This document shows positions 7,671 to 51,447 of a stretch of 56,343 bases of DNA, one piece after another (within the stretch, counting starts at the first letter, position 1; each line of letters opens with the position of its first letter). The stretch covers positions 1-56,343 of the IMG/VR virus record IMGVR_UViG_3300025396_000018; one strand, written 5' to 3'. The position numbers and the translations under genes were made by a program. The notes beneath the pieces are model-generated. The model did no database searches, had not been told where the DNA came from, and was given only the letters and a program-made list of their open reading frames with translations. The DNA is from a virus (Duplodnaviria > Caudoviricetes).

Positions 7671-7671
7671 T

Positions 7672-30535: not shown

Positions 30536-30568
30536 TATTTATTATACACACCTACCGGATGATGTCAA
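30536..30568 (-). promoter_or_regulatory. TTGACA-16-TATAAT promoter overlapped by a late-like AATAAATA
   Basis: Consensus hexamers at 30563-30568 and 30541-30546. Confidence 0.65.
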
Positions 30569-34395: not shown

Positions 34396-35316
34396 TTATT
34401 TTCCTTTTTCACGAAATGCAAATTCAGCATTGTAATCATACTTAGGTTCTAAGACTTTAGTTCTAACTCCTGCTGATAATGGAGGCATAGTTTCACCTGA
34501 TGCTTCATCTAATACAATTGGCTGTGCCTTTTCAAACTCGGCAATGTTTTCTTTTTCAACTTCAATTTTATCGTCAGGTTTAGTTTCAGTAAATACTGGT
34601 ATGTCACTTGCCGTTAAACCAGTAATTTCACCATCTTTTACGATGGGTTTTCCAGGTGGTGGCTTCAATGACATATTTGCTGCTATCAATAATAACACAG
34701 CTAGCGGGTCAAATACAACCATAATCAACATGATTACCAAACGAACTGCTTTGTCTAAAGCATTATCGTCATCACTACCATATACCAAATCACCAACATA
34801 CTTAATAGGACCTACTTCTGCCACAAGTTTATTAGATTCTTTTAATAATGGTAATTTTTTCTTACTGATTTCGGTTAATTCTTTTTGAGTATCTTGAATT
34901 TGTTTATCAAGTCGATTGTTTGCCGTTGATGGATCTTTGGCTCGTGCCAACAAATAATCTAATCTATCTTTGGTAATTTTCTCTTGTTGATTTAATGTTT
35001 TGACTTCTACATTATTGGCGCCCGCATCAAGTGTGGAATCAATATGTGCTTTGGCCAAGAAACCAAAAATACCCATACTAGTAATCATCATCAAAACAAT
35101 CACTGCGGTTGTCAAGTATGTTTTCAATAAAAGTGGGCAGGTCTTCCAATTACGATATAACCATGATGCAGTAACCAGTTTACTGGCTTCAAGAACTCCG
35201 CCCATAAAGACGATTGGCCAAAACGCACCAGTAAAGATTGCTGCCAATCCGATTACCGAATAGTAGGCAGCAATACCAGATAATGCCAAGGCACATAAAA
35301 ATGTTAAGTAAATCAT
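34396..35316 (-). CDS. Multi-pass membrane protein with coiled coil
   Basis: Three N-terminal TM helices, coiled coil, VFDPLAVLLLIAAN; ATGA overlap with gp43. Confidence 0.75.
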   Translation of the reverse strand: MIYLTFLCALALSGIAAYYSVIGLAAIFTGAFWPIVFMGGVLEASKLVTASWLYRNWKTCPLLLKTYLTTAVIVLMMITSMGIFGFLAKAHIDSTLDAGANNVEVKTLNQQEKITKDRLDYLLARAKDPSTANNRLDKQIQDTQKELTEISKKKLPLLKESNKLVAEVGPIKYVGDLVYGSDDDNALDKAVRLVIMLIMVVFDPLAVLLLIAANMSLKPPPGKPIVKDGEITGLTASDIPVFTETKPDDKIEVEKENIAEFEKAQPIVLDEASGETMPPLSAGVRTKVLEPKYDYNAEFAFREKGK

Positions 35317-37853
35317 GAGAAGAAATCCTCCAGACTGCTTATTTTCTCTGTTGTCCAGCCCATACAATCAAGAATGACTTTGATGGGTTCAATAAATGAC
35401 TTTTCAAATTGTAAATCATAATCGATATAATTGTCAAGCCCAAACTCTTTTGGTAATCTACCAGGAAAAGAAATAACGGTATTCTTAAAATGATTTGGTG
35501 TTTTAAGATAACTATACTTTAACTTCTCACCTTCTTGAATCAAAGGATACTTTTTGGTTAGTCCTTTTTCTTTGAGATAATGATTATAAAGAATGGCACC
35601 CTTAACATGAATTGGAGTACCAAGTTTATACAATGTCACCGAATCATAATATTTAGCCAAACCATTACAGCCTCTTGGTGAAGAAATATCTTCTGGTGGT
35701 AATGCCTTGAATTCTTCTTTAAAGTCCTCAATAAATTTGTGTACATCATCTTCTGTACCGGTTACAAGAAGTTTAATCAAATCATACATCTTAACACGAA
35801 TGACAGATGGTGTTGAAGATTTAACCATTTCAAGACCCATGACTTTGAGTTGTGGTTCTTTGTATTGCACACCTTCATTATTATACACATTCAGAATATA
35901 TCTTTTCTTTGCAGTCCAAATTCCTACATTAGAAAGACCTTCACGTTTCATTTCCATCTTTTGAGCATATGCACAAACATACTCTGCAAGCTCCTGATAA
36001 CTTTTGTCAATAAAAGGTTGAATTTTATCTTCACATATACGGTCCATGATGGAGATAACTTTTGAAGTTTCAGTCTTTGTTTTAACAATGCTATCAACCA
36101 ATGGACCAAGGTTGAGATAAATCGAATCTGTATCTGACGCAATAACATAATCTTTCTCACTTTTTAATATCCTGTTCATCCACTCATTAAGTTTAGCTTC
36201 AATCCAACGAATACTTAACTGGCCAGCGGTCGTAACACCAAGAGCCATACGCAAATCATAAAATCTGAAATACTGAGAGCCAAGAGCGCCGTAAGCAGAA
36301 TTAAGTGATACTTTCTTTGCCAACTGGATGTTATTATATTTTGCAATACGTTTTTCAATTTCATACTTTTTAGATTCGTCAGTTTCATTTTCATATTCTT
36401 GCTTTGCGGCCAACATCATGTTCTTAAACTTCTTACGGTCTGTATACATTTCTTCCATCATCTTAGGTAAGAAACCTTGTTTGACAGTAGAAAAGAATTG
36501 GCCATTAGGAGTTAGTGTTGCACCTTTAAGTCTTGTTAAATCAACTTTCTTGGCCAACATCTTATTAACATCAACGCCTTGTTCCAGAATGTCACGCATT
36601 TCATCTGTGTAATCTTCAGGTTCAATCAGAGTTTCAGGACTAATATTATATTGCATCATCAAGTGAGGATACAAACTATTCAAGTCAAACGATGCCACCC
36701 AATCATGCTTGCCTACTTGAACCTCTTTAACATAAGCACCTTCAAACATACCATCTTTGTGTTTAGTGATACGAGGCGGTACAATGATATTCTTCTCATA
36801 CAAGTAAGCATAAGTCAAAGAATCCCACATACGAGTTTGAGCAAAGACATCTTCAAAGTTTGTCTTGGTGTCATAAGCAAGAGTTACTGCCAGTTCAAGC
36901 AGTTTCAACTTATCTTCTAATTTGATAATGAGTTCAACGTCTTTGATGTTATACTCAATAAACTTTTGAAAGTTCAAACGATACAATGCGTGTAGGTTAT
37001 CATATTCATCATAAGAGATTTTGCCTTCACCAAGTTCTACCTGTGCAATAGCATCAAGACGATAACTCTCTTGTGACTTACCGCCAGGAGCATACCATTT
37101 GTATAGTTCGATGTAGTCTAGTGATTCAACGCCAAGTAGACCATAAGCAATCATCTCTCGGCCATTGATTATAGTCTTTCTTTCAGAAATAAAATTCCAA
37201 GGTGACAACTTCTTAGTTTCTGGTTCGCCAAGAATTTTACGAAATCGATTGATGAGATAAGGTATATCAAAAAACTTTGTATTCCATCCTGTAATGATAT
37301 CAGGATACTTGTCTTTCCAAAATGCCATGAATTGTTTGCAAAGAGAATACTCATCTTTACAACGAACATAAACTTCATTACCTTGTACTTCATACTCACC
37401 ACAGGCAAATACAAAAGGAGTTTGATTTAGAAATTTGATACAGATAGCGGTGATTGGTTCGTTTGCTTTGTATGGGTCAGGAAATCCATTCTCTGAACCA
37501 ACCTCAATATCGATTACGGCAATCTGAACCTTATCATAATCATAGTCGACCATGCCACGATGTTGTTCAGCGATATAAGCATATTCAAATCGTGTTTGAC
37601 CATAGATTACTGGAGAACCTGGCACTCCATCAAATTGCTTGATGTAGTCTCTAGCAGCACGAAGGTCACCAAAGACTTTTTGGTCAAGTGGTAGACCATC
37701 TAATGAAGAATAAACACCTTGTGGGTTTTTACGAGAAGGAAGATATAATGAAGGAGAATAATCAACTTTCTCCCTCACTACCTGACCATCACGAATGCCT
37801 CGATAGAGAATACTGTTACCGAAACTTTGTACATTAGTATAGAAATTGCTCAA
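35313..37853 (-). CDS. 43: DNA polymerase family B (T4 gp43), uninterrupted
   Basis: DIEV exonuclease motif, SFDLNSLYP, K.SLNSAYG, ASDTDS, KKRY. Confidence 0.97.
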   Translation of the reverse strand: MSNFYTNVQSFGNSILYRGIRDGQVVREKVDYSPSLYLPSRKNPQGVYSSLDGLPLDQKVFGDLRAARDYIKQFDGVPGSPVIYGQTRFEYAYIAEQHRGMVDYDYDKVQIAVIDIEVGSENGFPDPYKANEPITAICIKFLNQTPFVFACGEYEVQGNEVYVRCKDEYSLCKQFMAFWKDKYPDIITGWNTKFFDIPYLINRFRKILGEPETKKLSPWNFISERKTIINGREMIAYGLLGVESLDYIELYKWYAPGGKSQESYRLDAIAQVELGEGKISYDEYDNLHALYRLNFQKFIEYNIKDVELIIKLEDKLKLLELAVTLAYDTKTNFEDVFAQTRMWDSLTYAYLYEKNIIVPPRITKHKDGMFEGAYVKEVQVGKHDWVASFDLNSLYPHLMMQYNISPETLIEPEDYTDEMRDILEQGVDVNKMLAKKVDLTRLKGATLTPNGQFFSTVKQGFLPKMMEEMYTDRKKFKNMMLAAKQEYENETDESKKYEIEKRIAKYNNIQLAKKVSLNSAYGALGSQYFRFYDLRMALGVTTAGQLSIRWIEAKLNEWMNRILKSEKDYVIASDTDSIYLNLGPLVDSIVKTKTETSKVISIMDRICEDKIQPFIDKSYQELAEYVCAYAQKMEMKREGLSNVGIWTAKKRYILNVYNNEGVQYKEPQLKVMGLEMVKSSTPSVIRVKMYDLIKLLVTGTEDDVHKFIEDFKEEFKALPPEDISSPRGCNGLAKYYDSVTLYKLGTPIHVKGAILYNHYLKEKGLTKKYPLIQEGEKLKYSYLKTPNHFKNTVISFPGRLPKEFGLDNYIDYDLQFEKSFIEPIKVILDCMGWTTEKISSLEDFFS

Positions 37854-38188: not shown

Positions 38189-38196
38189 TATAAATA
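38189..38196 (+). promoter_or_regulatory. T4 late promoter TATAAATA heading the plus-strand island
   Basis: Exact gp55 consensus in the divergent intergenic gap. Confidence 0.65.
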
Positions 38197-38225
38197 TACT
38201 TGTTACTTATATTGATGCTTTGGTG

Positions 38226-38254
38226 ATTATATACGATTAACCAACGATTGTCAA
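38226..38254 (-). promoter_or_regulatory. Sigma70-type promoter TTGACA-17-TATAAT for the gp43 operon
   Basis: Perfect consensus. Confidence 0.88.
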
Positions 38255-38261
38255 TACAAAA

Positions 38262-38540
38262 ATGGATTTTTTTAAATTAGTTGCCGAACTTGGCTTTCCA
38301 ATTGCCGCAGCGATGGCTGCCGGTTATTTTGTATTCCTGACCTTGAAATTTATTCTGGCAGGAGTCACTTCTTCTGTGAAGTCTTTAAGTGGTATTATTA
38401 CTGCTTTAGACAATCGTGTTAAAACCATGAATCATGATGTTATCAGAATTGATACTCTAATGTCAAGCGCATTAGGAGTTAAACCTGACACCGACCGTAT
38501 TGCTCGTGCAGACGGCAAAAATGATGCTCGAAAGGACTAA
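38262..38540 (+). CDS. Single-TM membrane protein (GFPI motif, YvrJ-like), paralog A
   Basis: ELGFPIAAAMAAGYFVF followed by a coiled coil. Confidence 0.75.
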   Translation: MDFFKLVAELGFPIAAAMAAGYFVFLTLKFILAGVTSSVKSLSGIITALDNRVKTMNHDVIRIDTLMSSALGVKPDTDRIARADGKNDARKD

Positions 38541-38542
38541 TT

Positions 38543-38719
38543 ATGCCATTATATAAAGAATTGGATGATTTAGAAGATATCGCCATCAATTTTGATGATG
38601 CGGCTCGTTTGGCTGCCACTCAATTGCTCGATATCGATAGTGAGTTAGCATTACAAATTATGAAGTGTTCTTCTAGTTTTATGAAAATTGCTAAACAAAA
38701 ATACAAAGAAGAAGTATAA
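38543..38719 (+). CDS. Hypothetical protein, 58 aa (MPLYKELDDLEDIAINF...)
   Basis: Hand-translated; AAGGA SD; TAATG overlap with the next gene. Confidence 0.6.
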   Translation: MPLYKELDDLEDIAINFDDAARLAATQLLDIDSELALQIMKCSSSFMKIAKQKYKEEV

Positions 38720-39000
38720 TGGATCCAGTAGAATTAGTTAATAAGTATGGTTTTCCTATTGTTGCCGCAGGCGGCATGGGTTACCTTATATTTTATGTGT
38801 GGAAATGGGCAACACAAGAAATTAAGCCTGTTTTAAGTGAAGCAAGTAATGTTTTGATTGCTTTGATTGACCGTGTCAGGATGTTAGATAATGATTTGAT
38901 TAGATTGAATCAAAAGCTAAACATCGTATTGATGTTACGGGAAATTAAGGATGAAGATAAACAAGATACTAAAAAGTCTAGTTCTAGCGTTATTAAGTAG
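38719..39000 (+). CDS. Single-TM membrane protein (GFPI motif), paralog B
   Basis: KYGFPIVAAGGMGYLIF...IALIDRVRMLDNDLIR. Confidence 0.75.
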   Translation: MDPVELVNKYGFPIVAAGGMGYLIFYVWKWATQEIKPVLSEASNVLIALIDRVRMLDNDLIRLNQKLNIVLMLREIKDEDKQDTKKSSSSVIK

Positions 39001-39418
39001 TTCCGCTTTTGCTACAACTATTGCTGATTATCAGTTTAAGAGTCCTTCTTTAAATGGTAATGGGTACGGCGCATTTCAAATGGCATTGGAAAATGAGCAA
39101 TATGCTCGTTCACAGGCTATTCTTCAAGCTATGGAAGCTGCAAAGCAACAAGCAAAAGCAGATGCCGCCAATACACCAATCAATCAATTTCTAACAAACT
39201 TAGAATCCCGTATTTACGCTCAAATTTCACAGAACTTGGCAACTGCCATGTTTGCTGGTGGTTCATCTACTTCAGGTCAAATGAACTTTCAAGGTAACAC
39301 AATATTTTGGACTAATACAGGTACAAATATTCAATTACAAGTAACCGATAATGTCGGTAATATGACCACAATTAATGTGCCACTTGGCTCATTTAATATT
39401 ACAGGAAGTGGTCCATGA
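38951..39418 (+). CDS. csgF: Curli assembly protein CsgF-like
   Basis: Signal peptide ending AFA; YQFKSPSLNGNG resembles CsgF FQFRNPNFGGN; F..NLESRIY.Q; adjacent to csgG. Confidence 0.8.
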   Translation: MKINKILKSLVLALLSSSAFATTIADYQFKSPSLNGNGYGAFQMALENEQYARSQAILQAMEAAKQQAKADAANTPINQFLTNLESRIYAQISQNLATAMFAGGSSTSGQMNFQGNTIFWTNTGTNIQLQVTDNVGNMTTINVPLGSFNITGSGP

Positions 39419-40386
39419 AAAAATTATTGTTAATACTATCAGTTCTTATTCTTTCTGGTTGTGCTATTTCACAAAAAGCCGGCCAAATGGTTGGCGTTGA
39501 ACATGAGCCAAAAGTATTAGAGAACAAATTACAAAAAGAGTTCGATGAAATTCCACCACCATCTAAAGGCAGATTGGTTGTAGCAGTTTATCAATTCACA
39601 GATAAAACAGGACAACGTAAAGCTATTCCTGGTATCGCATCATTTAGTACCGCAGTTACACAAGGTGCTGATGCCTTATTGATTCGTTCATTACAAGATG
39701 TTGGTCATGGTAGATGGTTTGATGTAGTTGAGCGTGGTAACATTGATGCTCTTACTAAAGAACGTTTAATCATTACACAGATGCGACAAGCATATGAAGG
39801 TCCGCAAGCACAAAAATTAATGCCTTTAACTTTTGCTGGTATTATACTTGAAGGTGGTATTATTGGTTACGATACAGGTTTAGAATCAGGCGGATTAGGT
39901 TATAACTTTTTAGGTATTGGTCCAACAACACAATACAGTAAAGATATTATTACTGTTAGTTTAAGAGCAATATCAGTTAATACAGGTAAAGTATTGGCAA
40001 CTGTAACAGTTACAAAGATTGTTTATAGTACAGCAGATGCTATAGCAATTTTTAAAAGTATCGAACCAGGTGGAATAGGAAGTATGATATCACAGATTGG
40101 TGCACCCAACAATGGGTCGGTAAGTCCAACTGCGGCCATCTTTCAGTTTGAATCTGGTTTGACAATCAATGAGGCAACAACTATAGCATTAAAGACAACA
40201 ATTGAAGCAAGTGTGGTTGAATTAATTAAAGAAGGACAAAGAAAAGGTGTTTGGGATTATGGTACAATCATGGAAGCACAACCTAATCCAACCATCTCAG
40301 CAACGCCGAGTATTCCATTGGGTATGTCTAGTAAAAAAGACACGCCAGCGGATGTGGCAGCCAAGATGGGAGTAGTAAAACAATAA
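39415..40386 (+). CDS. csgG: Curli secretion channel CsgG-like lipoprotein
   Basis: ILSGC lipobox; VAVYQFTDKTGQRK, FSTAVTQGA, WFDVVER..L..ER..I, EGGIIGYD. Confidence 0.92.
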   Translation: MKKLLLILSVLILSGCAISQKAGQMVGVEHEPKVLENKLQKEFDEIPPPSKGRLVVAVYQFTDKTGQRKAIPGIASFSTAVTQGADALLIRSLQDVGHGRWFDVVERGNIDALTKERLIITQMRQAYEGPQAQKLMPLTFAGIILEGGIIGYDTGLESGGLGYNFLGIGPTTQYSKDIITVSLRAISVNTGKVLATVTVTKIVYSTADAIAIFKSIEPGGIGSMISQIGAPNNGSVSPTAAIFQFESGLTINEATTIALKTTIEASVVELIKEGQRKGVWDYGTIMEAQPNPTISATPSIPLGMSSKKDTPADVAAKMGVVKQ

Positions 40387-40395
40387 GGAAAAGAA

Positions 40396-41334
40396 ATGAA
40401 AAAGAGCTTAAAAGGCGCTGGCGGATTGTCGAGAAAATTATCCGCAATTCTAATGACAGCTGTAATGCTGTTGTCGGGACTGGCAGTAGCCGGAGATAAT
40501 ACCATTTATATCAATCAGTCAGGAAGCAATTCGACTATTGGTGTAACACAAAATGGTGCAGGTAATGCCGTAGAAGGAGTTCAGACTACTGGTTCAAGTG
40601 CAACTACGCCGGCAGTAATCAATGGCAATAGCAATCAAGTTACTGTTAATCAAGTTGGTACAGGTGATACTTTACAACTAGGTATTCAGACTACTGTTGC
40701 GAATGGTATTTCAAATGGTAACAATTATAGTTATTCTATTACAGGTAGCAACTCTACTGCTGTCATCAATAGTAACAATGATGGTTCTGGAACAAGTGCA
40801 AGCAACAATGTTAATGTAACTCAAACAGGTAACAACTCTAATTTGAATGTGAATATTTTAGGAACAGGAAACAATCTAACTGCAACAACTGCTGGCGGCA
40901 CAAACAATAGTGTGGTTGCAACTGTTAATGGTACAGGCAATAATGATACTGTTAATATGAATGGTGGCGGTTCAAATAGTTTTACTTTGAATCAAGGTAA
41001 TTCTACAACTGCTTCTACCACAAGTTCTGTTACATTGAATTCTACTGGTGCAAGCAACACATTTGGTATTACACAAAATGGTGGCACCAATGGCAATACT
41101 GTTACTGTTGGAGGTTATAGTGGATCTACTACAACACCAAGTGGTTCGTTAAATGGTTCTAGTAACTCTGTAACTGTTTCACAAACAGGTAATGCTGATA
41201 ATACATTTATTCTTGGTTTGACAGGAAGTACTAATACATTTAATGTTACACAAGGTGCTGCAACAGGTAATAACACCACAAATATCCAAAGTAGTGGCAG
41301 TAACAACACTTGGACTATTCATCAAACACATTGA
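40396..41334 (+). CDS. Secreted curlin-repeat (CsgA/CsgB-like) protein
   Basis: Signal peptide ending AVA; many N-x-x-x-[IV]-x-Q-x-G-x-x-N repeats; Asn/Gly/Thr/Ser-rich. Confidence 0.8.
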   Translation: MKKSLKGAGGLSRKLSAILMTAVMLLSGLAVAGDNTIYINQSGSNSTIGVTQNGAGNAVEGVQTTGSSATTPAVINGNSNQVTVNQVGTGDTLQLGIQTTVANGISNGNNYSYSITGSNSTAVINSNNDGSGTSASNNVNVTQTGNNSNLNVNILGTGNNLTATTAGGTNNSVVATVNGTGNNDTVNMNGGGSNSFTLNQGNSTTASTTSSVTLNSTGASNTFGITQNGGTNGNTVTVGGYSGSTTTPSGSLNGSSNSVTVSQTGNADNTFILGLTGSTNTFNVTQGAATGNNTTNIQSSGSNNTWTIHQTH

Positions 41335-41376
41335 TTGGAAAAACTATGATTACGCTCAAAGAACTGATTAAAGAAT

Positions 41377-42513
41377 ATGAAGAAAAGAATCCTGATAATA
41401 CTGAGTTTCTTGATTTTGCTGACTTGCTCAGTCCCCACATTAGCAGCGGTGGGGACAATAACGGAGCAAGTGAATACACCAGCATCAATACAAAGAGCTA
41501 AAACAACTTTAACCGGCACCAAAGGTACTGGTGTCGAAATGGAAGATGCCATCAATACCAAACAAGGTAAGGTTGGCATCATTTTTGCCGATAATACAAA
41601 AGTACAAGTAAATGAAAATTCTAAATTGGTCATTGATGAGTTCGTTTATGATCCAAAAAATAAAGGTGCTGGAAAACTGGCTCTCAATATGGCGGCCGGC
41701 ACGGTCCGTTATGCCAGCGGCGCCATCGCTCACGACAATCCTAATAAAGTTGCTATCAACACTCCTACCGCTACTGTGGCTGTCCGTGGTACTGATTTCA
41801 CAGCTACGGTTGATGAACTAGGTGCCAGTACAGTAATTTTATTACCTAGTTGTCCTACAAAAAATCCAATAGATGTTGAACATGAATGTAAAACAGGTAA
41901 GATTGAAGTAATCAATGATGGCGGTTCAGTTACATTAGACCAACCATTTCAAGCCACTAAAGTTACAGCTAGAAATGTGGCGCCCACAAAACCTGTTACA
42001 ATAAAATTAAATGAAGATAGTATTAATAATATGTTGATTCTTGCACCACCACAAGAAATTAAAAATGCTATTAAACAACGTGAAGATGAAAAACAAGGTG
42101 TGGTGACAGCGTTAAGCCAAAACTTCTTACAAGGTGTGGATTTAAGTAGTGTCTTGGCAGCAGAAAATTCTCAAATTTATACCAATGCTTTACAACGTAA
42201 TTTTTTAGACCAAGACTTTCTTGCAAATGTTTTACAATTATTGAATGAAGAACTATCACAAGAATTTGGCAATTTATTGGCACCACAAAAGAATAGTTTA
42301 TTGCCAGACTATAATTCTAAAACAGGTGTAGTGGCCACAGTCGATGCTATATCAGTTCAGTTGTGTCGGTCGGATGCAGGTAGTAATACTTCTTGTATCA
42401 CAACACCAAAAACACAAAACGCAACAGTAAGTCAAACACAATCAGGTAATGTAACTATTACTAACCGCATTAATGCCGGTGGTAATACTTTCATAACCAC
42501 CAAACAAAACTAA
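41377..42513 (+). CDS. Exported FecR-domain protein
   Basis: Signal peptide; F.DNTKVQVNENSKLVIDEFVYDP, TPTATVAVRGTDF. Confidence 0.85.
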   Translation: MKKRILIILSFLILLTCSVPTLAAVGTITEQVNTPASIQRAKTTLTGTKGTGVEMEDAINTKQGKVGIIFADNTKVQVNENSKLVIDEFVYDPKNKGAGKLALNMAAGTVRYASGAIAHDNPNKVAINTPTATVAVRGTDFTATVDELGASTVILLPSCPTKNPIDVEHECKTGKIEVINDGGSVTLDQPFQATKVTARNVAPTKPVTIKLNEDSINNMLILAPPQEIKNAIKQREDEKQGVVTALSQNFLQGVDLSSVLAAENSQIYTNALQRNFLDQDFLANVLQLLNEELSQEFGNLLAPQKNSLLPDYNSKTGVVATVDAISVQLCRSDAGSNTSCITTPKTQNATVSQTQSGNVTITNRINAGGNTFITTKQN

Positions 42514-43841
42514 TGAAAATATTATTCACATTTCTTCTTGCTGGATTATTAGGATTTTGTGCACCAAAATCTTATTCACAAACATCAGGATTAAATTATG
42601 TAACTTATGCTGGTACTGGTGCCACGCCAAATTATACAAACTTGGCATATCCAAATCCATTGAGTTCAGGTATAGTAAGTAATATTAATTACAATTGGGG
42701 TAGTGGTTATGTTTTAACATCAGGTCGTGTTGACCAAGTTATTATTCATTTTACTGGATACATCAATATACCTACTGCCGGAACATATACATTCGGGGGT
42801 AATGCAGATGACGGATTAGTTATAAGCATTAATAATACTACTATAATTAATAGTTGGCAAGAAGATGGTGGTAGTTTCAGACAAGGCAGTATTAATTTAC
42901 CTGCTGGCGCTGTTCCAATTAGTGTTTGGTATTATGAAAACGGTGGCGGTGCATTAGTCAATTTTCAATGGTATCAAAATAATAGTTGGCAGGTTGTTCC
43001 TTCCACAAGTTTGTATACCAGTATGCCGGCACCACAGTATACTAGTTCAATTACCGGCGGCCAGTCGGCTCAAGTTTCTTCAGTAGTCACTAGAATGTCC
43101 GGTGTTACTACTGCTTCATCAAATAGTATTTACATTAATCAAACAGGAAACGGTGATGTTATTAACATTACACAAGTTGGTTATGCTAACAAAATTGATG
43201 GTGCAAATTATAATAGTTCTACTGGAGTAGCAGGTTATCAACAGTCAGCACCTATTACTGGTGGTAGTAATAATATTACCATACGACAAGGTGATCCTAT
43301 GGCAAAAACAGGAAATAATTTAATAGATTTAGCTGCAATTGGTGGAAACAACACACTTAATTTAAATCAAGGTACAGATGTTAATGGAAATTATACAGGA
43401 TTAGACCAAGGCGGACACTATCAATTTGATTATATCAATGGCAGTTATAATAATATTACAGTAGTACAAGAAAATACTGGCGTATCAGGTAATCAATTTT
43501 CTAGTTTAGTAGTTATTGGTAATTTGAATACTGTTGGCATCACACAAACGGGTAATGCACAAAAACAATTATTTGCTAGTGTGACCGGTAATAGTAATAC
43601 AGTTACTACTAGTCAAACAGGAACAAGTAAAGATTATCTTAGTATAACCACCACAGGTAATGGTAACTCAGCAGTAGTTACTCAAAACAACAGTAGTGCT
43701 TCTGGTGCTAACGCTGCCACAATAGTTCTAAATAATGCAGGTGCACCAGCTTCAGTAAACGTAACACAAACTGGTGGACAAACATATAACATCACTCAAA
43801 CTTGTGTAACTACTTGTGGAACAGTAACGGTACGCCAATGA
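42513..43841 (+). CDS. Secreted PA14-domain plus curlin-repeat protein
   Basis: INYNWGSG...FTGYINIPTAGTYTF...ADDG...WYYENGGGA (PA14); C-terminal Q-x-G-x-x-N repeats. Confidence 0.82.
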   Translation: MKILFTFLLAGLLGFCAPKSYSQTSGLNYVTYAGTGATPNYTNLAYPNPLSSGIVSNINYNWGSGYVLTSGRVDQVIIHFTGYINIPTAGTYTFGGNADDGLVISINNTTIINSWQEDGGSFRQGSINLPAGAVPISVWYYENGGGALVNFQWYQNNSWQVVPSTSLYTSMPAPQYTSSITGGQSAQVSSVVTRMSGVTTASSNSIYINQTGNGDVINITQVGYANKIDGANYNSSTGVAGYQQSAPITGGSNNITIRQGDPMAKTGNNLIDLAAIGGNNTLNLNQGTDVNGNYTGLDQGGHYQFDYINGSYNNITVVQENTGVSGNQFSSLVVIGNLNTVGITQTGNAQKQLFASVTGNSNTVTTSQTGTSKDYLSITTTGNGNSAVVTQNNSSASGANAATIVLNNAGAPASVNVTQTGGQTYNITQTCVTTCGTVTVRQ

Positions 43842-43975
43842 TTATAGTTCAACTTCTTGGTGGAGTATTTGGTTGGTGCCTTGTATGGGCAATAGTATAT
43901 GTTTGCGATAAAAGAGAAGAATTAAAATTAGAGCGTGATTTGAAAAATATACGAAAACAATATGAAAAAAATTAG
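43838..43975 (+). CDS. Small membrane protein, 45 aa
   Basis: Hand-translated MIIVQLLGGVFGWCLVWAIVYVC plus charged tail; ATGA overlap. Confidence 0.55.
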   Translation: MIIVQLLGGVFGWCLVWAIVYVCDKREELKLERDLKNIRKQYEKN

Positions 43976-45974
43976 AAAGTTATTATTATCTCCGTTGACA
44001 GCTTTATTGACAATGGCATTATGTATTTGTGTTTTTGTTGATAAACCTGCTTTTGTTGAATCGGTAAAATACAGATATCTTGATACTGTAATTACTAGTA
44101 AACCAGTAACACAATCTAAAGATGTGGTGATTGTTAATATTGATGATGAAACTTTAAAACAAAAAGGTCAATTTCCTTTTCCAAGGGGCGAATATGCCAA
44201 AATTATCCGAGATTTGTATCAACGTGGTGCTGGGCTTGTTGTGTTTAATGTTTATATGCCTGATAACGATAGGTTTTTTCAGGATGATGCTTTGGCTAAC
44301 ACATTCAGGAAGTATCCAGTAATCCTTCCACAAGCTGGTTCTAATGACAAACAAGGTAGTGTTATTCCATTTAGACCTGGTGTTTCAGTAATTGGTGAAG
44401 GTTTTGCCGGAGTAGATTATAATTCAATTCAACCAAATGTAAAGGCCTTAAATGAAACAGCTGCTGGCATTGGTATTGTTAATACTTTCCCCGAAATTGA
44501 TGGCGTCACACGTCGTGTGCCAATGGTCGTACAGTCCCAAGGATTGTTATACCCTTCAATTAGTCTTGAAACCCTCAGAGTTGCATCAGGCGACCCAAGC
44601 TTCCAAGTTAAAATTGGCGAATACGGAATACAAGCGGTCAGAATTCCTAAATTTGGAAAAATCACCACAGATGCAGTCGGTAGAATTTGGGTCGATTGGT
44701 CAAGCAAACCAACAGAATATTCTTTATCAAAATTACCAGAGAACTTTAATAATTCCATCGTCATTGTCGGTCTCACAGCCAAAGGACTTAATAACCCCGT
44801 TGCAACAGCTACCGGTGCAGTCTATCCACATAATCTTCAAGCAGCAGTACTAAGTACTCTCATTTCAGGAACAAACATCTCCAGGCCTGATTGGGCTGAT
44901 GGAGGAGAGTTATTATACACAATTGCATTATGCTTAATAACTTTATTTTTTACAAGGTACACACATGGTTACATCGCAATCTTCTTTGTGGCAGGAATCA
45001 CCTATTTCGGAAGTCATGAACTATTTGATAGATACCAATACCTCATTGATATTACTTTCCCACTTTTCACCATATTTTTTACCTTCACACATGGATATGT
45101 TGTCAAATTTGTGTCTGAATGGTATCAAAAACAACAAATCAAAAAACAATTCGGAACATACCTCAGTCCCGCATTGGTCGAAAAACTCCAGAAAAATCCT
45201 GAACTTCTTACTCTCGGCGGAGAATCAAAAGAATTATCCATTATGTTCACCGATGTTAGAGGTTTCACTACAATCTCTGAGCATTATGGAAAAGATGTTC
45301 AAGGATTAACTAAGATTATGAATCGTTATATGACTGCTATGACGAAAAAGATTTTAGAAAACAATGGTACATTAGACAAATATATTGGTGACGCACAGAT
45401 GGCATTTTGGAATGCTCCTGTTGATGAACCTAATCATGCAAAGATGGCGGTTAAAACTGCATTACAAATGATGGAGAGTTTAGATGAATTCAATACTGAA
45501 ATTACTAAAGAAGGCATTCCACCTTTTGGTATGGGTTTGGGTATTAACACCGGGGTCGTTGTTGTGGGTAATATGGGGTCTGAGCAACGTTTTGACTATA
45601 CCTGCCTCGGTGATACAGTCAATCTCGCATCTCGTCTTGAAGGTCAATCAAAGCCTTATGGAGTTCGCATTGTCCTTGGTACATTAACCGCAGAACAAGT
45701 GAGGGACGAATATCCTGTTGTTGAATTGGATTGTATTGCTGTTAAGGGTAAAACAGAAGGTGTAAAGATATTTACTTTAGGTAAACCTAATTATAAACAT
45801 CAAACGTACTTAGATTGTTACTACTCTGGTGACTGGACTAAAGCAAAGAAACTCTGTAAAGAATTGATTGAAGAAAACAATGAATTGAATCAATACTACA
45901 AGAATATGTTAGAAAGGCTGGAAGAAGGTCTTCCAGCCAATTGGGATGGTACTTATCGTGCTACTTCTAAGTAA
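43962..45974 (+). CDS. CHASE2-domain class III adenylate cyclase
   Basis: TM-CHASE2 (VIVNIDDETL...FPFPR, DGVTRRVP)-TMs-cyclase (FTDVRGFT, DKYIGDA, DYTCLGDTVNLASRLE). Confidence 0.93.
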   Translation: MKKIRKLLLSPLTALLTMALCICVFVDKPAFVESVKYRYLDTVITSKPVTQSKDVVIVNIDDETLKQKGQFPFPRGEYAKIIRDLYQRGAGLVVFNVYMPDNDRFFQDDALANTFRKYPVILPQAGSNDKQGSVIPFRPGVSVIGEGFAGVDYNSIQPNVKALNETAAGIGIVNTFPEIDGVTRRVPMVVQSQGLLYPSISLETLRVASGDPSFQVKIGEYGIQAVRIPKFGKITTDAVGRIWVDWSSKPTEYSLSKLPENFNNSIVIVGLTAKGLNNPVATATGAVYPHNLQAAVLSTLISGTNISRPDWADGGELLYTIALCLITLFFTRYTHGYIAIFFVAGITYFGSHELFDRYQYLIDITFPLFTIFFTFTHGYVVKFVSEWYQKQQIKKQFGTYLSPALVEKLQKNPELLTLGGESKELSIMFTDVRGFTTISEHYGKDVQGLTKIMNRYMTAMTKKILENNGTLDKYIGDAQMAFWNAPVDEPNHAKMAVKTALQMMESLDEFNTEITKEGIPPFGMGLGINTGVVVVGNMGSEQRFDYTCLGDTVNLASRLEGQSKPYGVRIVLGTLTAEQVRDEYPVVELDCIAVKGKTEGVKIFTLGKPNYKHQTYLDCYYSGDWTKAKKLCKELIEENNELNQYYKNMLERLEEGLPANWDGTYRATSK

Positions 45975-47402: not shown

Positions 47403-47477
47403 TGGTTGCGGAGGATGGAATCGAACCAACGCCCCCTGGATTATGAGTCCAATGCTCTACCTCTGAGCTACTCCGCT
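47403..47477 (-). tRNA. tRNA-Met(CAT), subtype ambiguous
   Basis: Cloverleaf; CT-CAT-AA loop; GTTCGATTC T-loop; encoded CCA. Confidence 0.9.
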
Positions 47478-47487
47478 ATACCTTTAC

Positions 47488-47616
47488 TTATTCTTTCACC
47501 AACTCATAGTCCCACTTACTAACACCACATTCAGGACAAGGCACTTCATCAGGCAAACTATTCCAATCTTCTACGGATAAAATGTGGCCGCAGACCACGC
47601 AACGATAATATTCCAT
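47488..47616 (-). CDS. Short rubredoxin, 42 aa
   Basis: Hand-translated MEYYRCVVCGH...LPDEVPCPECGVSKWDY; TAATG coupling to rubrerythrin. Confidence 0.85.
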   Translation of the reverse strand: MEYYRCVVCGHILSVEDWNSLPDEVPCPECGVSKWDYELVKE

Positions 47617-48074
47617 TATAGTGTCTCCAAAATTTGTTTATAGGCATTAGCGTGACGTTCTTCAACACCTTTAAGTGCCTTGAAACGCTTCTCTGCTTTT
47701 TCTAATACTGCCAATTTTGCTTTGAATTGTTCAGCGTGTTCTTTTGATTCAGAAATTTGTTCAACGAATTCAGTAGATGCTTGAGCATTCTTTTCGCTGA
47801 TAGCATTTTCTAAGAACTGAGGATACATTGTAGTGAACTCATATGTTTCGCCTTCAATGGCTTTTTTTAAACATTCTTTTGTAGATGGTTTACCGATGAG
47901 TAATTCGAGGTGACCCCAAGCGTGTAGAATCTCTTGGTTTGCTGTATGTTCAAAATGTTTGGCAACTTCTTCAAAGCCTTCTTCACGAGCAATTTTAGCA
48001 AAATAACGATACTTGATATGAGCCATTGATTCGCCAGCCAATGCACTCTCAAGGTTTTGTAATGTAATAGACAT
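47616..48074 (-). CDS. rbr: Rubrerythrin (di-iron ferritin-like domain)
   Basis: NLESALAGESMA..KY..FA, QEILHA, GETYE..TMYP.F, ESKEHA. Confidence 0.9.
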   Translation of the reverse strand: MSITLQNLESALAGESMAHIKYRYFAKIAREEGFEEVAKHFEHTANQEILHAWGHLELLIGKPSTKECLKKAIEGETYEFTTMYPQFLENAISEKNAQASTEFVEQISESKEHAEQFKAKLAVLEKAEKRFKALKGVEERHANAYKQILETL

Positions 48075-48114
48075 ATTTACTCCATAGTTAAAATATTATG
48101 TATATCTCAAATCA

Positions 48115-48173
48115 ATAAATTTTAGTTATTGCCTTTATGATATGTTTTGATGATTGTTATTAAGAAAATCAAT
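48115..48173. promoter_or_regulatory. OxyR/LysR-like phased operator
   Basis: ATAA-N7-TTAT-N7-ATGA-N7-TGAT-N7-ATTA-N7-CAAT upstream of rubrerythrin. Confidence 0.4.
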
Positions 48174-48383
48174 TATTGAGGATACTGTCGTGTGTTTAAT
48201 AGGCGTGTCGTAGATTAAGCGTTTAAGGCCATTCTTTCGAACTCTACCACCGCCTACCCCAGCTTACAGCTTCCTTCCGTTCTCAGCATACGGAAAATCT
48301 CCAGATATTGGATCATACCGCCGGGGTGTTGATGTTCCTTGACAGTTAGGATTGCTTATCCTTTACCGCACATCCTCAATAAT
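48171..48383 (-). ncRNA. Structured RNA of about 210 nt, family unknown
   Basis: 13-bp terminal inverted repeat plus several internal helices and a GAAA tetraloop. Confidence 0.6.
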
Positions 48384-48459
48384 TGGCTCCAAAGGCTGGG
48401 CTCGAACCAGCGACCAAATGATTAACAGTCATCTACTCTACCAACTGAGCTACTTCGGA
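48384..48459 (-). tRNA. tRNA-Asn(GTT)
   Basis: 76-nt cloverleaf; CT-GTT-AA; encoded CCA. Confidence 0.95.
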
Positions 48460-48466
48460 ATAAAAC

Positions 48467-48540
48467 TGGAGCGGGATATTGGAATCGAACCAATGTTATC
48501 AGTTTGGAAAACTGAAGTCCTACCATTAAACGAATCCCGC
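48467..48540 (-). tRNA. tRNA-Gly(TCC)
   Basis: 74-nt cloverleaf; TT-TCC-AA; U73-CCA. Confidence 0.95.
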
Positions 48541-48541
48541 A

Positions 48542-48608
48542 TGGAGCGGAGTGATGCTTTGCTCACCTAACAAAAGATGGTATCTTTTATCGTACTATTA
48601 CTCTCCGC
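48542..48608 (-). ncRNA. 67-nt tRNA-Gly-like RNA with non-canonical D and T arms and ACC at the hairpin apex
   Basis: GCGGAG/CTCCGC-T-CCA acceptor; 10-bp central hairpin. Confidence 0.65.
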
Positions 48609-48617
48609 ATATGTAAT

Positions 48618-48646
48618 ACTATAACATCTTAATTATAAGAAGTCAA
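48618..48646 (-). promoter_or_regulatory. Sigma70-type promoter TTGACT-17-TATAGT
   Basis: Directly upstream of the tRNA-like RNA / Gly / Asn block. Confidence 0.8.
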
Positions 48647-48668
48647 TACAAAAGTTTGGTATATTTGA

Positions 48669-48742
48669 TGGTGCCCCAGCACAGAATCGAACTGCGAATT
48701 GATGATTACAAATCAACTGTTATACCATTTAACTACAAGGGC
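48669..48742 (-). tRNA. tRNA-Thr(TGT)
   Basis: 74-nt cloverleaf; TT-TGT-AA; encoded CCA. Confidence 0.92.
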
Positions 48743-49429: not shown

Positions 49430-49792
49430 TTATCGCCTTGCATCTCTTGTAATAATATTATAATAAATCTTTTCAGGAGAAAAGAAAGATTGTAGACAAT
49501 CCGTAACCCTTTGATTTTCAAAGTCTTTACAACTGAATACATCAAGGTAGAGGTCTCCATTATGGTCCAAGAAGTGTGCCATAATATTGGAAGTCTCAAT
49601 TAACTGTATGGCCGTGAAGCCTGCTTTTTCTGTATTATCTGCAAAGTGTACCACTTGTGGTTCACCAAAAGGTACCATTTCAATCTGTGTTACCAGTTCT
49701 TTAATAAAATGCCTGATGTATTCAGGATCTCTGGCTCGGTCTAATTGGCACCCTTTGGCATCAACGACCATATGTTTACCCCAACCTTGCAT
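49430..49792 (-). CDS. speD: S-adenosylmethionine decarboxylase proenzyme (SpeD-like)
   Basis: WGKHMVVD..GC, QLIETSNI.AHF, YLDVFSCK; start at MQGWG. Confidence 0.8.
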   Translation of the reverse strand: MQGWGKHMVVDAKGCQLDRARDPEYIRHFIKELVTQIEMVPFGEPQVVHFADNTEKAGFTAIQLIETSNIMAHFLDHNGDLYLDVFSCKDFENQRVTDCLQSFFSPEKIYYNIITRDARR

Positions 49793-49962
49793 TACCATTC
49801 TCCATTGTCGAACCAAACACGGATAGTGATTGGTAATAATTCAATCAACAAAGCATCTTGTTCCCAAACCTCATTGGTTTTATTGTATTTGAATGAGATT
49901 CTCCAATGAAACGGATTTAATTTCAAGGTAATATTACAACCAGAGTACATTAGCCAATCCAT
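49792..49962 (-). CDS. Hypothetical Trp-rich protein, 56 aa (MDWLMYSGCNITLKLNPFHWR...)
   Basis: Hand-translated; TAATG overlaps at both ends. Confidence 0.65.
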   Translation of the reverse strand: MDWLMYSGCNITLKLNPFHWRISFKYNKTNEVWEQDALLIELLPITIRVWFDNGEW

Positions 49963-50426: not shown

Positions 50427-50492
50427 TTATTTGCCAACCGGATAATTTAACTGTTCCCATTCCTCATCGGTAACGGGCCACCAGTTATTCAT
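50427..50492 (-). CDS. 21-aa micro-ORF MNNWWPVTDEEWEQLNYPVGK
   Basis: Overlaps the hsp20 stop and ends just before the terminator. Confidence 0.45.
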   Translation of the reverse strand: MNNWWPVTDEEWEQLNYPVGK

Positions 50493-50952
50493 CTTTGGAT
50501 TTTACGGCAATCTTCTTCACCATATCCTGTGCTTTTACCATATTTTCTAGCCAGACTTTAAGCATACCATTTGCAATTTCGGCATCTTTAATCTCTACCT
50601 TATCGGCAAGAGTAAAGGTACGATTGAAACTGCGATTAGCAATGCCTTTATAAATGAAACTAGATGGATCTTCATCACTTTCAACAGCTGCACCACGGAT
50701 AACCAACTTATTACCTTCTAAGGTAACTTCAATGTCCGTCTTAGCAAAACCAGCAACTGCCATTTCAATGACATACTTGTTTTCTTTGACTTGTTTGATG
50801 TTATATGGAGGGTAACCAGGTGTTGCCTTGGCGACTGTCTCAGAGATATCACGGATTTGGTCTAATACATCATCAAAACCAACTGTGAATGGATCCAAAG
50901 ACTTATGGAGGGAAGCCCATTGTGGGAATAAAGATAAAGTTGCGCTTGTCAT
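50485..50952 (-). CDS. hsp20: Small heat shock protein (Hsp20, IbpA-like)
   Basis: GYPPYNI, IEMAVAGF, YKGIA.RSF.R.FTLA, NGML. Confidence 0.93.
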   Translation of the reverse strand: MTSATLSLFPQWASLHKSLDPFTVGFDDVLDQIRDISETVAKATPGYPPYNIKQVKENKYVIEMAVAGFAKTDIEVTLEGNKLVIRGAAVESDEDPSSFIYKGIANRSFNRTFTLADKVEIKDAEIANGMLKVWLENMVKAQDMVKKIAVKSKDE

Positions 50953-51013: not shown

Positions 51014-51043
51014 ATTGTATCAGTATTTATACTACTTTGTCAA
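51014..51043 (-). promoter_or_regulatory. TTGACA-18-TACAAT promoter with nested late TATAAATA (51024-51031)
   Basis: Both motifs read directly; TG-extended -10. Confidence 0.65.
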
Positions 51044-51447
51044 TAAGAACCTGGTTTCTTACCAATATTGTATTTTGGTGTCAATTCCCAACCATCCTTC
51101 TCTTTATGAGACAGGATCTTAATTTGGGAAAGAAAGATTGGTGCTGGTGTTTCAATCTGTTTTTGATTTACCACTTTTACCAATCCCCAATCTTGTAACA
51201 ACTTGGCAATGGCATTCCTGCGAGACAAGTCATTTTCTGAGATATCAGTAGGTTTACCATCTAAAGCAAACAGTTCTTTAAAGTGTACGATGTAATACTT
51301 ACCTTGCTTGTGCAAGATATGGCATGATTGGTACAGGATTCTGTCTTTTTTGGAAGCTACACCGATGCGTGTAAGAGTTTCACGAACCTTCAAGAAATCA
51401 TCTTTTTCACCTAATGTAACTTCAACTAAATCTATAATTGAAATCAT
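51040..51447 (-). CDS. regA: Translational repressor RegA
   Basis: DDFLKVRETLTRIGVAS, LYQSCHILHKQGKYYIVHFKELF.LDG. Confidence 0.96.
   Translation of the reverse strand: MISIIDLVEVTLGEKDDFLKVRETLTRIGVASKKDRILYQSCHILHKQGKYYIVHFKELFALDGKPTDISENDLSRRNAIAKLLQDWGLVKVVNQKQIETPAPIFLSQIKILSHKEKDGWELTPKYNIGKKPGSY

Follow-up and report, generated by a model that had tools for sequence, protein, structure and literature searches.

The DNA analyzed here (the window) is a stretch of 56,343 nucleotides (nt) that makes up IMG/VR record IMGVR_UViG_3300025396_000018, a 56-kb fragment with an estimated completeness of 34%. Its source is a T4-like phage from lake water. Between 38262 and 45974 on the plus strand, the open reading frame (ORF) list contains a packed run of ~7.7 kb that encodes two small membrane proteins (tmA and tmB), homologs of the curli secretion proteins CsgF and CsgG, a curlin-repeat protein, a FecR-fold protein, a second curlin-like protein with a PA14 head, and a CHASE2 receptor-class III adenylate cyclase. 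This block is a freshwater representative of the viral type VIII secretion system (T8SS, curli)–FecR–adenylate cyclase module already described in the literature, and it is very probably both that known module and functional. Comparison of related loci points to three units with separate histories, namely, the tm pair, the csgF-to-fecR segment, and the cyclase. Taken as a whole, the block is best explained as the known module working through a fiber pore, FecR, and the cyclase, a reading that we favor with moderate confidence.

The system is not a new discovery, because FecR, the small membrane proteins, and the cyclase are all part of the viral T8SS region reported by Wittmers et al. 2022 (PMC9599517). 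The region described there comprises HK (histidine kinase), CsgF, CsgG, CsgA/B, FecR, a second CsgA/B, and adenylate cyclase, the last two following FecR often but not always. It is present in podo- and myophages, an alphaproteobacterial origin was inferred for it, transcripts of the viral region were found in ocean metatranscriptomes, and FecR, HK, and cyclase are placed outside bacterial T8SS operons. The window block shares with that module the setting in a T4-like phage and the order tm pair–csgF–csgG–curlin–fecR–second curlin–CHASE2 cyclase. As in that module, CsgE was not found, and neither CsgC nor CsgD is among the genes recognized, no search having been aimed at these two. An earlier note made from the letters of the window had taken phage csgF and csgG to be described mainly as a pore with no signaling output, and thereby missed this paper. 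Zaragoza-Solas et al. 2020 (PMC7029224) described csgF/csgG and their neighbors in pelagimyophages, for which they proposed “sibling capture,” and freshwater fonsimyophages without the curli operon. For phage Melnitz, Buchholz et al. 2022 (PMC9004378) put forward a pore that times lysis; the words FecR and cyclase were not found in the main text of that paper.

Searching with the cyclase by tblastn retrieved Methylophilales phage Melnitz (four records, 37.6% identity, 96% cover) and Pelagibacter phage HTVC008M (two records). As annotated, both phages (MZ577097 and KC465899) have the gene order of the window block. They differ from it in sequence, the cyclase being just 37 to 38% identical to theirs at the protein level, and in insertion site, which is beside gp43 in the window and after gp32 in Melnitz and HTVC008M. 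The habitat differs as well: the published pelagiphage modules are from the ocean, whereas the window is from fresh water. A PA14 head on the second curlin protein is common to the window and HTVC008M. The word PA14 was not found in the main text of PMC9599517, and our literature search returned no paper joining PA14 domain, curli, phage, and CsgG and none joining CHASE2, adenylate cyclase, phage, and curli.

Every gene named in the earlier note is present at its plus-strand position according to Pfam, PHROG, and the ORF list. The genes for tmA (38262 to 38540; 92 amino acids [aa]) and tmB (38719 to 39000; 93 aa) are paralogs, since both products match phrog_18771 (1.3e-36 and 1.2e-33). They are followed by csgF (38951 to 39418), encoding a 155-aa CsgF homolog with a signal peptide (Pfam CsgF, 4.3e-15), and csgG (39415 to 40386), encoding a 323-aa lipoprotein (Pfam CsgG, 2.2e-39). 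Next come the gene for the exported, 312-aa curlin-repeat protein 1 (40396 to 41334), fecR (41377 to 42513; 378 aa, exported; Pfam FecR, 8.5e-11), the gene for the exported, 442-aa protein with a PA14 head and curlin-like repeats (42513 to 43841; Pfam PA14, 1.7e-11), and the gene for the 670-aa membrane-bound cyclase (43962 to 45974; CHASE2, 3.1e-39; Guanylate_cyc, 7.2e-23). The Pfam scores for CsgF, CsgG, FecR, PA14, CHASE2, and Guanylate_cyc are all well over their cutoffs. Between tmA and tmB lies a plus-strand ORF for an acidic product of 58 aa (38543 to 38719), which was without match in Pfam and PHROG searches and has homologs in only some relatives (L011, L012, L039, L084, L085, L112, and seven further loci). 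A 57-aa ORF (43802 to 43975) has a homolog in no locus, not even the 97%-identical L004; it is probably not a gene and was treated as a non-gene.

Linkage of these genes was examined in loci collected by three IMG/VR scans, in which cassette genes were called by phmmer with the window proteins. The cyclase scan confirmed at least 594 viral stretches and the tmA scan at least 580, the best 80 of each being used; the CsgG scan gave 55 loci. Of the 41 loci that were collected with the cyclase and have 7 kb or more upstream, 39 contained all of csgG, csgF, fecR, tmA, and tmB. The tm pair lies before csgF or, in convergent orientation, behind the cyclase, and the two misses (L058 and L061), which have less than 1.3 kb downstream, are probably arranged convergently, as are L063 and L081. 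Around csgG, fecR followed in the order of the window in 35/35 loci with at least 2.5 kb downstream, and the cyclase was present in 23/23 with at least 9 kb downstream. Around tmA, 27 loci have 8 kb to either side, and 26 of these contain cassette genes, the miss being L257. L257 and L255 carry the tm pair with no cassette within ~9 kb, and in L074, the cyclase is unaccompanied by a cassette over 3.3 kb upstream and 10 kb downstream. In seven other loci (L010, L015, L027, L028, L062, L065, and L066), ~1.9 to 2.5 kb of further sequence separates csgF from csgG.

As the sole plus-strand run in the window, the block might be taken for a product of chimeric assembly or for bacterial DNA captured recently and now decaying, either of which we consider exceedingly improbable. 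Its G+C content resembles that of its flanks (0.34–0.39). In four lake or freshwater runs, none of which is flagged as a possible source, assembled contigs cross both junctions (they include records 18 and 22 of X5 and records 26 and 31 of X6); the gp43–DUF6561 flank recurs in 26 IMG/VR loci, and L004 to L009 repeat the flanks. All cassette ORFs are intact, and their ratios of nonsynonymous to synonymous substitution rates (dN/dS) relative to L004 and L009 are 0.04 to 0.16 in seven genes and 0.33 to 0.35 in the PA14 gene; every cassette gene is under purifying selection. The combination of genes, moreover, occurs in no bacterial locus examined (0/80 and 0/7; see below). Thus, the genes are a conserved cassette, inherited together in related phages, in which FecR and the cyclase do co-occur with csgF and csgG, and lack of co-occurrence, decay, and chimerism, which the earlier note had named as possible refutations, all fail on the linkage counts, the selection, and the bridged junctions.

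DNA of the window was detected in 20 runs labeled freshwater or lake water metagenome, at 72 to 99% of sampled words; four of these are possible sources. The lineage is a freshwater one, and the module lives also in lake T4-like phages. Several lake-run contigs end, or turn unlike the window, near four positions: 38.9 kb, where tmB meets csgF; 40.4 kb, where csgG meets the curlin gene; 42.6 kb, where the PA14 head starts; and 43.5 to 43.7 kb, where the PA14 gene meets the cyclase. Such ends would be expected if co-occurring strains differ at block boundaries; contigs are no proof of this.

We propose that the block works as follows. Transcribed late from a T4-type promoter, it would supply a host that lacks an outer-membrane pore of this kind with one formed by the CsgG lipoprotein and CsgF. 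Two curlin-repeat proteins would be exported via this pore and would polymerize on the infected cell, where the fast-changing PA14 lectin head of the second may bind some glycan; that the T8SS exports fibers is, in our judgment, rather probable. The periplasmic FecR-fold protein would physically work with the products of the pore or fiber genes, its co-evolving partners, and would also be a co-sensor of the CHASE2 cyclase, by which secretion or surface status would be converted into cAMP (cyclic AMP) acting on host receptors. The step in which FecR couples the T8SS to the cyclase is tentative and somewhat doubtful. The signaling path that the earlier note proposed, from fiber or lectin through the pore and FecR to CHASE2 and cAMP, is likewise an inference.

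Several results weigh against this mechanism. Distance matrices for 37 nonredundant loci and the window correlate at 0.82 to 0.93 among CsgF, CsgG, curlin, and both FecR halves, whereas CHASE2 correlates with these proteins at only 0.24 to 0.33 (FecR–CHASE2, r = 0.33). The matrices of tmA and tmB correlate with each other (r = 0.77), and each correlates at less than 0.35 with the remaining proteins. Gene trees, which were quick trees made without a mixture model, conflict across the same boundary. A clade of nine rows (the window, L004, L009, L089, L094, L096, L091, L092, and L119), named from the csg genes and FecR before the cyclase tree was seen, is recovered by CsgF and CsgG together (support 100) and by FecR (99.9) and is rejected by the cyclase data (approximately unbiased test, p-AU = 2e-39). 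Conversely, a second clade named from the cyclase tree (the window, L004, L007, L008, and L009) is rejected by FecR (p-AU = 3.7e-36) and also by CsgF and CsgG (p = 1.4e-4). By these comparisons, the closer evolutionary tie of FecR is to the secretion genes. Podophage modules, moreover, have FecR without a cyclase (PMC9599517), which argues for a role of FecR independent of the cyclase.

Gene-by-gene identities indicate that csgF to fecR was swapped as a single piece, and such block exchange both fits the podophage modules and lowers the odds that FecR mainly partners the cyclase. L007 and L008 share the backbone of the window (gp43 of L008 is 77% identical, and in both loci, tmA is 91–92% and the cyclase 80–83% identical), and their CsgG and FecR are 64% and 55% identical to those of the window. 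L089 and L094 are distant from the window in tmA (70–71%) and cyclase (44–46%) but close in CsgG (75–78%) and FecR (76–79%). Across the 53 loci with all seven proteins, median identities to the window were 77% for tmA, 73% for tmB, and 66% for the cyclase and 47% for FecR, 43% for CsgG, 43% for CsgF, and 32% for curlin. The two proteins could nevertheless be partners, because a conserved interface would allow such mixing.

Four further points belong on the same side. The first curlin protein scores 19.6 bits with Curlin_rpt, below the Pfam cutoff of 20.7, although at the level of the family, 26 of 27 members match Curlin_rpt at E ≤ 0.01 (best, 4.4e-14). The late-promoter motif TATAAATA has three matches in the window, which alone are no excess over chance. 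No cNMP-binding domain (PF00027) was found in the window or in the records of five relatives, three of which are at least 96% complete, and no RNA run was among the runs that contain window DNA.

The separate gene histories speak for a rival account in which the block holds two independent devices. FecR would be a periplasmic accessory of the T8SS, for example, one that replaces the CsgE adaptor or gate by docking on CsgG or by holding curlin subunits; the cyclase would sense something else and reprogram host cAMP, and no signal would pass from fiber or pore to the cyclase. Such an arrangement, which we judge to be fairly unlikely but a serious contender, would account for the co-evolution of FecR with CsgF, CsgG, and curlin and not with CHASE2, for the tree conflict at the fecR/cyclase boundary, for the exchange of csgF to fecR in one block, tmA and the cyclase having remained with the gp43 backbone, and for podophages that keep FecR without a cyclase. 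A search for CsgE (PF10627) gave no match at E ≤ 0.1 in the window, a 34%-complete fragment, whereas the E. coli control matched, which would leave room for a substitute. With hhalign, the C-terminal 30 residues of FecR show a weak alignment to one curlin repeat, but this similarity is not significant (P = 0.0014–0.003, probability 10–17%), and we rejected the FecR C terminus as a curlin repeat on that ground. Against independent devices, seven bacterial csg loci without CsgE are also without FecR (0/7), so a T8SS needs no FecR; FecR-domain genes are frequent beside the closest bacterial CHASE2 cyclases (26/80); and T4-like phages, given enough flank, always carry the cyclase (23/23).

The bacterial loci came from a genome-collection search with the viral cyclase alignment, in which the best 80 of 598 related stretches were used. 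These homologs are full length including the tail, 31 to 39% identical, and mostly alphaproteobacterial. HMMs (hidden Markov models) built from the viral families detected no csgG, csgF, or curlin gene and no tm pair in any of the 80 loci. A FecR-domain ORF is present in 26 of the 80 and, where 8 kb is available to either side, in 23 of 51; in 10 loci it lies within 300 nt of the cyclase. In all 14 of the FecR-domain neighbors tested by Pfam, the domain is proximal to the N terminus, and six of the 14 carry C-terminal modules (TPR, cadherin/laminin-G, RTX, FG-GAP, NIDO, and DUF4114); unlike the phage protein, these bacterial FecR partners are often giant. A single one of the 80 loci, L154 from an alphaproteobacterial metagenome-assembled genome, has a match to the phage PA14-curlin family, a 202-aa PA14-domain protein (7626 to 8231; 6.4e-11) ~1.9 kb upstream of the CHASE2-cyclase homolog.

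On the curli side, the viral query found no CsgG in five genomes with close cyclase homologs. Of 401 genomes belonging to the same class as a Bradyrhizobium genome, seven encode a CsgG with 40 to 49% identity, the nearest cellular CsgG found, and all seven have csgF and curlin-like genes beside it. Within ~10 kb of these seven alphaproteobacterial loci, there was no fecR, cyclase, or tm pair (0/7), and the loci contain no CsgE. Bacteria thus keep the halves apart: their FecR and CHASE2 cyclase are found without csg, and their csg loci have neither FecR nor cyclase. Within what was searched, the combination is phage only (0/80 and 0/7), in agreement with Wittmers et al. (PMC9599517), and the module joins an alphaproteobacterial-type csgF-csgG-curlin locus to a FecR-domain/CHASE2-cyclase sensor pair.

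That pair is a recurrent one in bacteria, which supports the part of the earlier note that links FecR with CHASE2. Besides the 26 loci above, earlier reports describe the Burkholderia “BiofilmReg” with LysM-FecR and a CHASE2 kinase (PMC5192318), a CHASE2 cyclase with a FecR outer-membrane protein, TPR, and phosphodiesterase in Campylobacterota (PMC9239204), and SMc02177 near cyaD1 in Sinorhizobium (S. meliloti), a FecR/CHASE2 pair (PMC5498481). In S. meliloti, perception of an external protein signal by the CHASE2 cyclases CyaK/CyaD1/D2 depends on NsrA, a protein of the outer membrane (PMC7529298 and PMC13001267).

The model of the FecR-fold protein (predicted local distance difference test score [pLDDT], 82.8) runs from an N-terminal beta domain through a helical linker of low confidence to a small beta domain at the C terminus. 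Residues 54 to 220 superpose on the C-terminal cell-surface signaling domain of PupR (6ovk_R; Z = 15.6, root-mean-square deviation 2.9, 137 residues aligned), which, by the title of the entry, crystal 6ovk shows in complex with the periplasmic part of a transducer in the outer membrane. The N-terminal domain also matches the Bacteroidetes anti-sigma factor BDI_1681 (4m0n; Z = 14.6), and Foldseek places the model on the PupR/anti-sigma fold at E = 1e-4. A signal-peptide-like helix (residues 2–16) is directly followed by the beta domain, and the protein has no cytoplasmic anti-sigma domain and no membrane anchor. Neither an extracytoplasmic function (ECF) sigma factor nor a TonB-dependent transducer was found among the block ORFs by the ORF list and Pfam. 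The protein therefore has the FecR fold but is no FecR-type regulator: it shares the periplasmic fold of the FecIRA and PupIRB systems, whereas their anti-sigma domain, anchor, sigma factor, and transducer are not in the block. It is at most a periplasmic adaptor outside those regulatory systems. The “cell surface anchoring domain” 5ix9, a Foldseek match of rank 5 considered for the C-terminal domain, was dropped, as VIA-align puts it on residues 23 to 118 and its Z of 7.1 lies in the range of common arrangements. Complex prediction of CHASE2 (residues 28–318) with the FecR N-terminal domain (24–215), both supplied as alignments, gave a score of 0.00, which is uninformative either way.

This architecture also bears on the suggestion that CsgG and CsgF form an ungated uptake pore, which would admit larger nutrients or cofactors to the periplasm, with FecR in a role like that in siderophore import. 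The idea was raised by Zaragoza-Solas 2020 (PMC7029224) and Wittmers 2022 (PMC9599517), and the gate CsgE was not found in the window. The block, however, is without a TonB-dependent transducer, an ECF sigma factor, or a transporter, its FecR protein is without the anti-sigma part and anchor, and the curlin and PA14 genes would be left unexplained. We consider this function very unlikely.

The pore genes are clear homologs of those of the E. coli curli T8SS. CsgG matches E. coli CsgG (3x2r_D) over residues 1 to 289 (phmmer, 1.4e-38), has a lipobox-like L-S-G-C at residues 13 to 16, and differs by an extra insertion and a C-terminal tail. The single CsgF sequence had no match in the PDB at E ≤ 1; the profile of its family matched E. 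coli CsgF (6l7a_J) over its full length from residue 5 (1.4e-9), in an alignment that takes in the N-terminal Phe/Pro/Gly-rich motif. The N-terminal segment of CsgF sits inside the CsgG barrel in the solved complex. Curlin-repeat proteins, recognized at the level of the family, are likewise the putative substrates in the window; the systems differ in that CsgE was not found in the window, that the bacterial loci examined are without FecR, cyclase, and tm pair, and that one of the putative window substrates has a lectin head. The AlphaFold2 model of curlin protein 1 (pLDDT, 78.5) has 22 short, regular strands in a solenoid-like pattern. It had no Foldseek match in the PDB at E ≤ 0.001, and the weak matches were all beta-helix proteins.

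In the second curlin protein, the PA14 domain (residues 25–156; 44.5 bits against a cutoff of 24) makes up a head of approximately residues 25 to 160. PA14 is over the cutoff in five of 16 second-curlin proteins of relatives, including that of HTVC008M. L004 is 95 to 100% identical to the window in tmA, tmB, CsgF, CsgG, curlin, FecR, and cyclase and 63% identical in the PA14 protein, where the difference is concentrated in the head (53/149 residues identical, 36%) relative to the repeats (218/265, 82%). The PA14 head is thus hypervariable, and this presumed surface-exposed lectin head is the part that turns over fastest.

The cyclase has its CHASE2 domain at residues 21 to 327 and hydrophobic segments at approximately 10 to 27 and 316 to 381. 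Among solved structures, its best matches are to the adenylate cyclases 6fht (2.1e-60) and CyaB of P. aeruginosa (3r5g, 5.9e-57). Residues D431, K473, D477, N554, and R558 are invariant in 11 viral cyclases, and position 547 is Thr in eight and Ser in three; D431, K473, D477, and R558 are invariant also when 10 bacterial sequences are added. From class III enzymes, we take D431 and D477 to be the two metal aspartates, N554 and R558 the transition-state Asn and Arg, and K473 the adenine lysine with Thr/Ser 547 as its partner. The protein is a predicted adenylate cyclase whose catalytic set, judged from its residues, is complete. Its C-terminal tail (45800 to 45974), with Trp-Asp-Gly and then Tyr/Arg-Ala-Thr-Ser-Lys, is common to the bacterial homologs to the last residue, and K670 is nearly invariant in 40 sequences.

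Upstream of the block, the T4-type late-promoter motif TATAAATA lies on the plus strand at 38189 to 38196, 66 nt 5′ of tmA, the first gene; its first base is where the earlier note begins the block. The sequence TATAAAT was used as a T4-like late promoter by Buchholz et al. (PMC9004378). The motif occurs within 150 nt upstream of tmA, on either strand, in 23 of 67 distinct relatives, against a background of 0.008 per 150 nt, and in none of the 65 to 80 distinct regions examined upstream of each of tmB, csgG, curlin, and fecR. A perfect sigma-70 consensus (TTGACA, 17 nt, TATAAT) is present on the minus strand at 38226 to 38254, directed toward the DUF6561-like gene and gp43; because it shares a 95-nt gap with TATAAATA, the gap may be a divergent early/late promoter region.

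Each of tmA and tmB has one Gly/Ala-rich hydrophobic segment, which is N-terminal in tmA and there accompanied by a conserved C-terminal helix. tmA is the most conserved protein of the cassette (83–99% identity in the best 80 of at least 580 viral matches), and tmB stands alongside it at nearly all loci. Neither matched a Pfam family at E ≤ 1, and in the ESM Atlas, tmA fell into unnamed viral clusters only, the nearest named cluster, YvrJ (0.89), being a lead at most. These small genes, one or two before csgF, are the “HK” of Wittmers et al. (PMC9599517). At 92 to 93 aa and with no Pfam family, they give the kinase label no Pfam support.

Their properties enter into the view, proposed by Buchholz et al. 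(PMC9004378), that the system times lysis: the CsgG or CsgGF pore would open or depolarize the envelope late, the cyclase and FecR would tune the timing, and the tm pair would perhaps act like a holin and antiholin. Consistent with this, the late-promoter motif precedes the tm pair in 23/67 relatives, and tmA and tmB are of holin-like size, carry one hydrophobic segment each, and are the most conserved parts of the cassette. An outer-membrane pore, however, is unable to depolarize the inner membrane, tmA and tmB match no Pfam holin family at E ≤ 1, and two fiber genes, CsgF, and a lectin head are under purifying selection, none of which a mere hole needs. We therefore regard lysis timing as an unlikely primary function and prefer the fiber pore with FecR and cyclase.

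The surroundings of the block are those of a T4-like genome, with gp43, UvsX, a gp41-like helicase, regA, and clamp-loader genes. Of the 77 nonoverlapped ORFs of at least 60 aa, 67 are on the minus strand and 10 on the plus strand, eight of the latter being the cassette. The other two encode only 72 to 80 aa, and one overlies minus-strand tRNA genes, so the description of the cassette in the earlier note as the only plus-strand block is essentially right. Its placement between hsp20/regA and gp43 holds closely on one side: gp43 (35313 to 37853, minus strand) is separated from the block by a single 103-aa DUF6561-like gene. On the other side it is loose, as hsp20 (50488 to 50952) and regA (51043 to 51447) lie 4.5 to 5 kb beyond the block, after a 65-aa ORF, a glycosyltransferase-like gene, tRNAs, rubrerythrin, and S-adenosylmethionine (AdoMet) decarboxylase; the clamp-loader genes are also on this side. 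Four tRNA genes (Met, Asn, Gly, and Thr) occupy 47403 to 48742 of the minus strand with rubrerythrin (47616 to 48074) among them, and AdoMet decarboxylase (49433 to 49816) lies just past this cluster; the tRNAs and these genes could help to guess the host. Beside the gp41-like helicase, a 369-aa minus-strand protein (30555 to 31661) matches Pfam DruA (Druantia protein DruA, 8.6e-9), a domain of a defense system found here within the phage replication module. In L051 (2376 to 5584) and L056 (1 to 2477), the gp43 homolog appears as two matches with a gap of ~570 to 730 nt, which may be an intron, intein, or homing-endonuclease insertion.

What the window adds, on a modest but concrete scale, is the occurrence of the module in lake T4-like phages, its three-unit build, and the PA14 head as the site of fastest turnover; the build and the variable head tell experimenters which parts to swap or delete first. 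The module is abundant, with at least 594 (cyclase) and at least 580 (tmA) viral stretches, and it equips infected cells with a system for secretion and an enzyme for a second messenger, both reportedly absent from their hosts. In its boldest form, which we consider unlikely but worth stating, the phage would give its host a trans-envelope sensory organ that bacteria do not themselves assemble, a swappable outer unit plugged into a conserved inner unit, with contact read as cAMP. The outer unit would be the CsgF/CsgG pore, the curlin fiber with its interchangeable PA14 head, and the FecR-fold adaptor, and the inner unit would be the CHASE2 adenylate cyclase with the tmA/tmB pair. Late in infection, contact of the fiber or lectin with particles, other phages, or neighboring cells would be converted into cAMP that sets lysis timing or host physiology, and block exchange would be how such phages retune what they sense.

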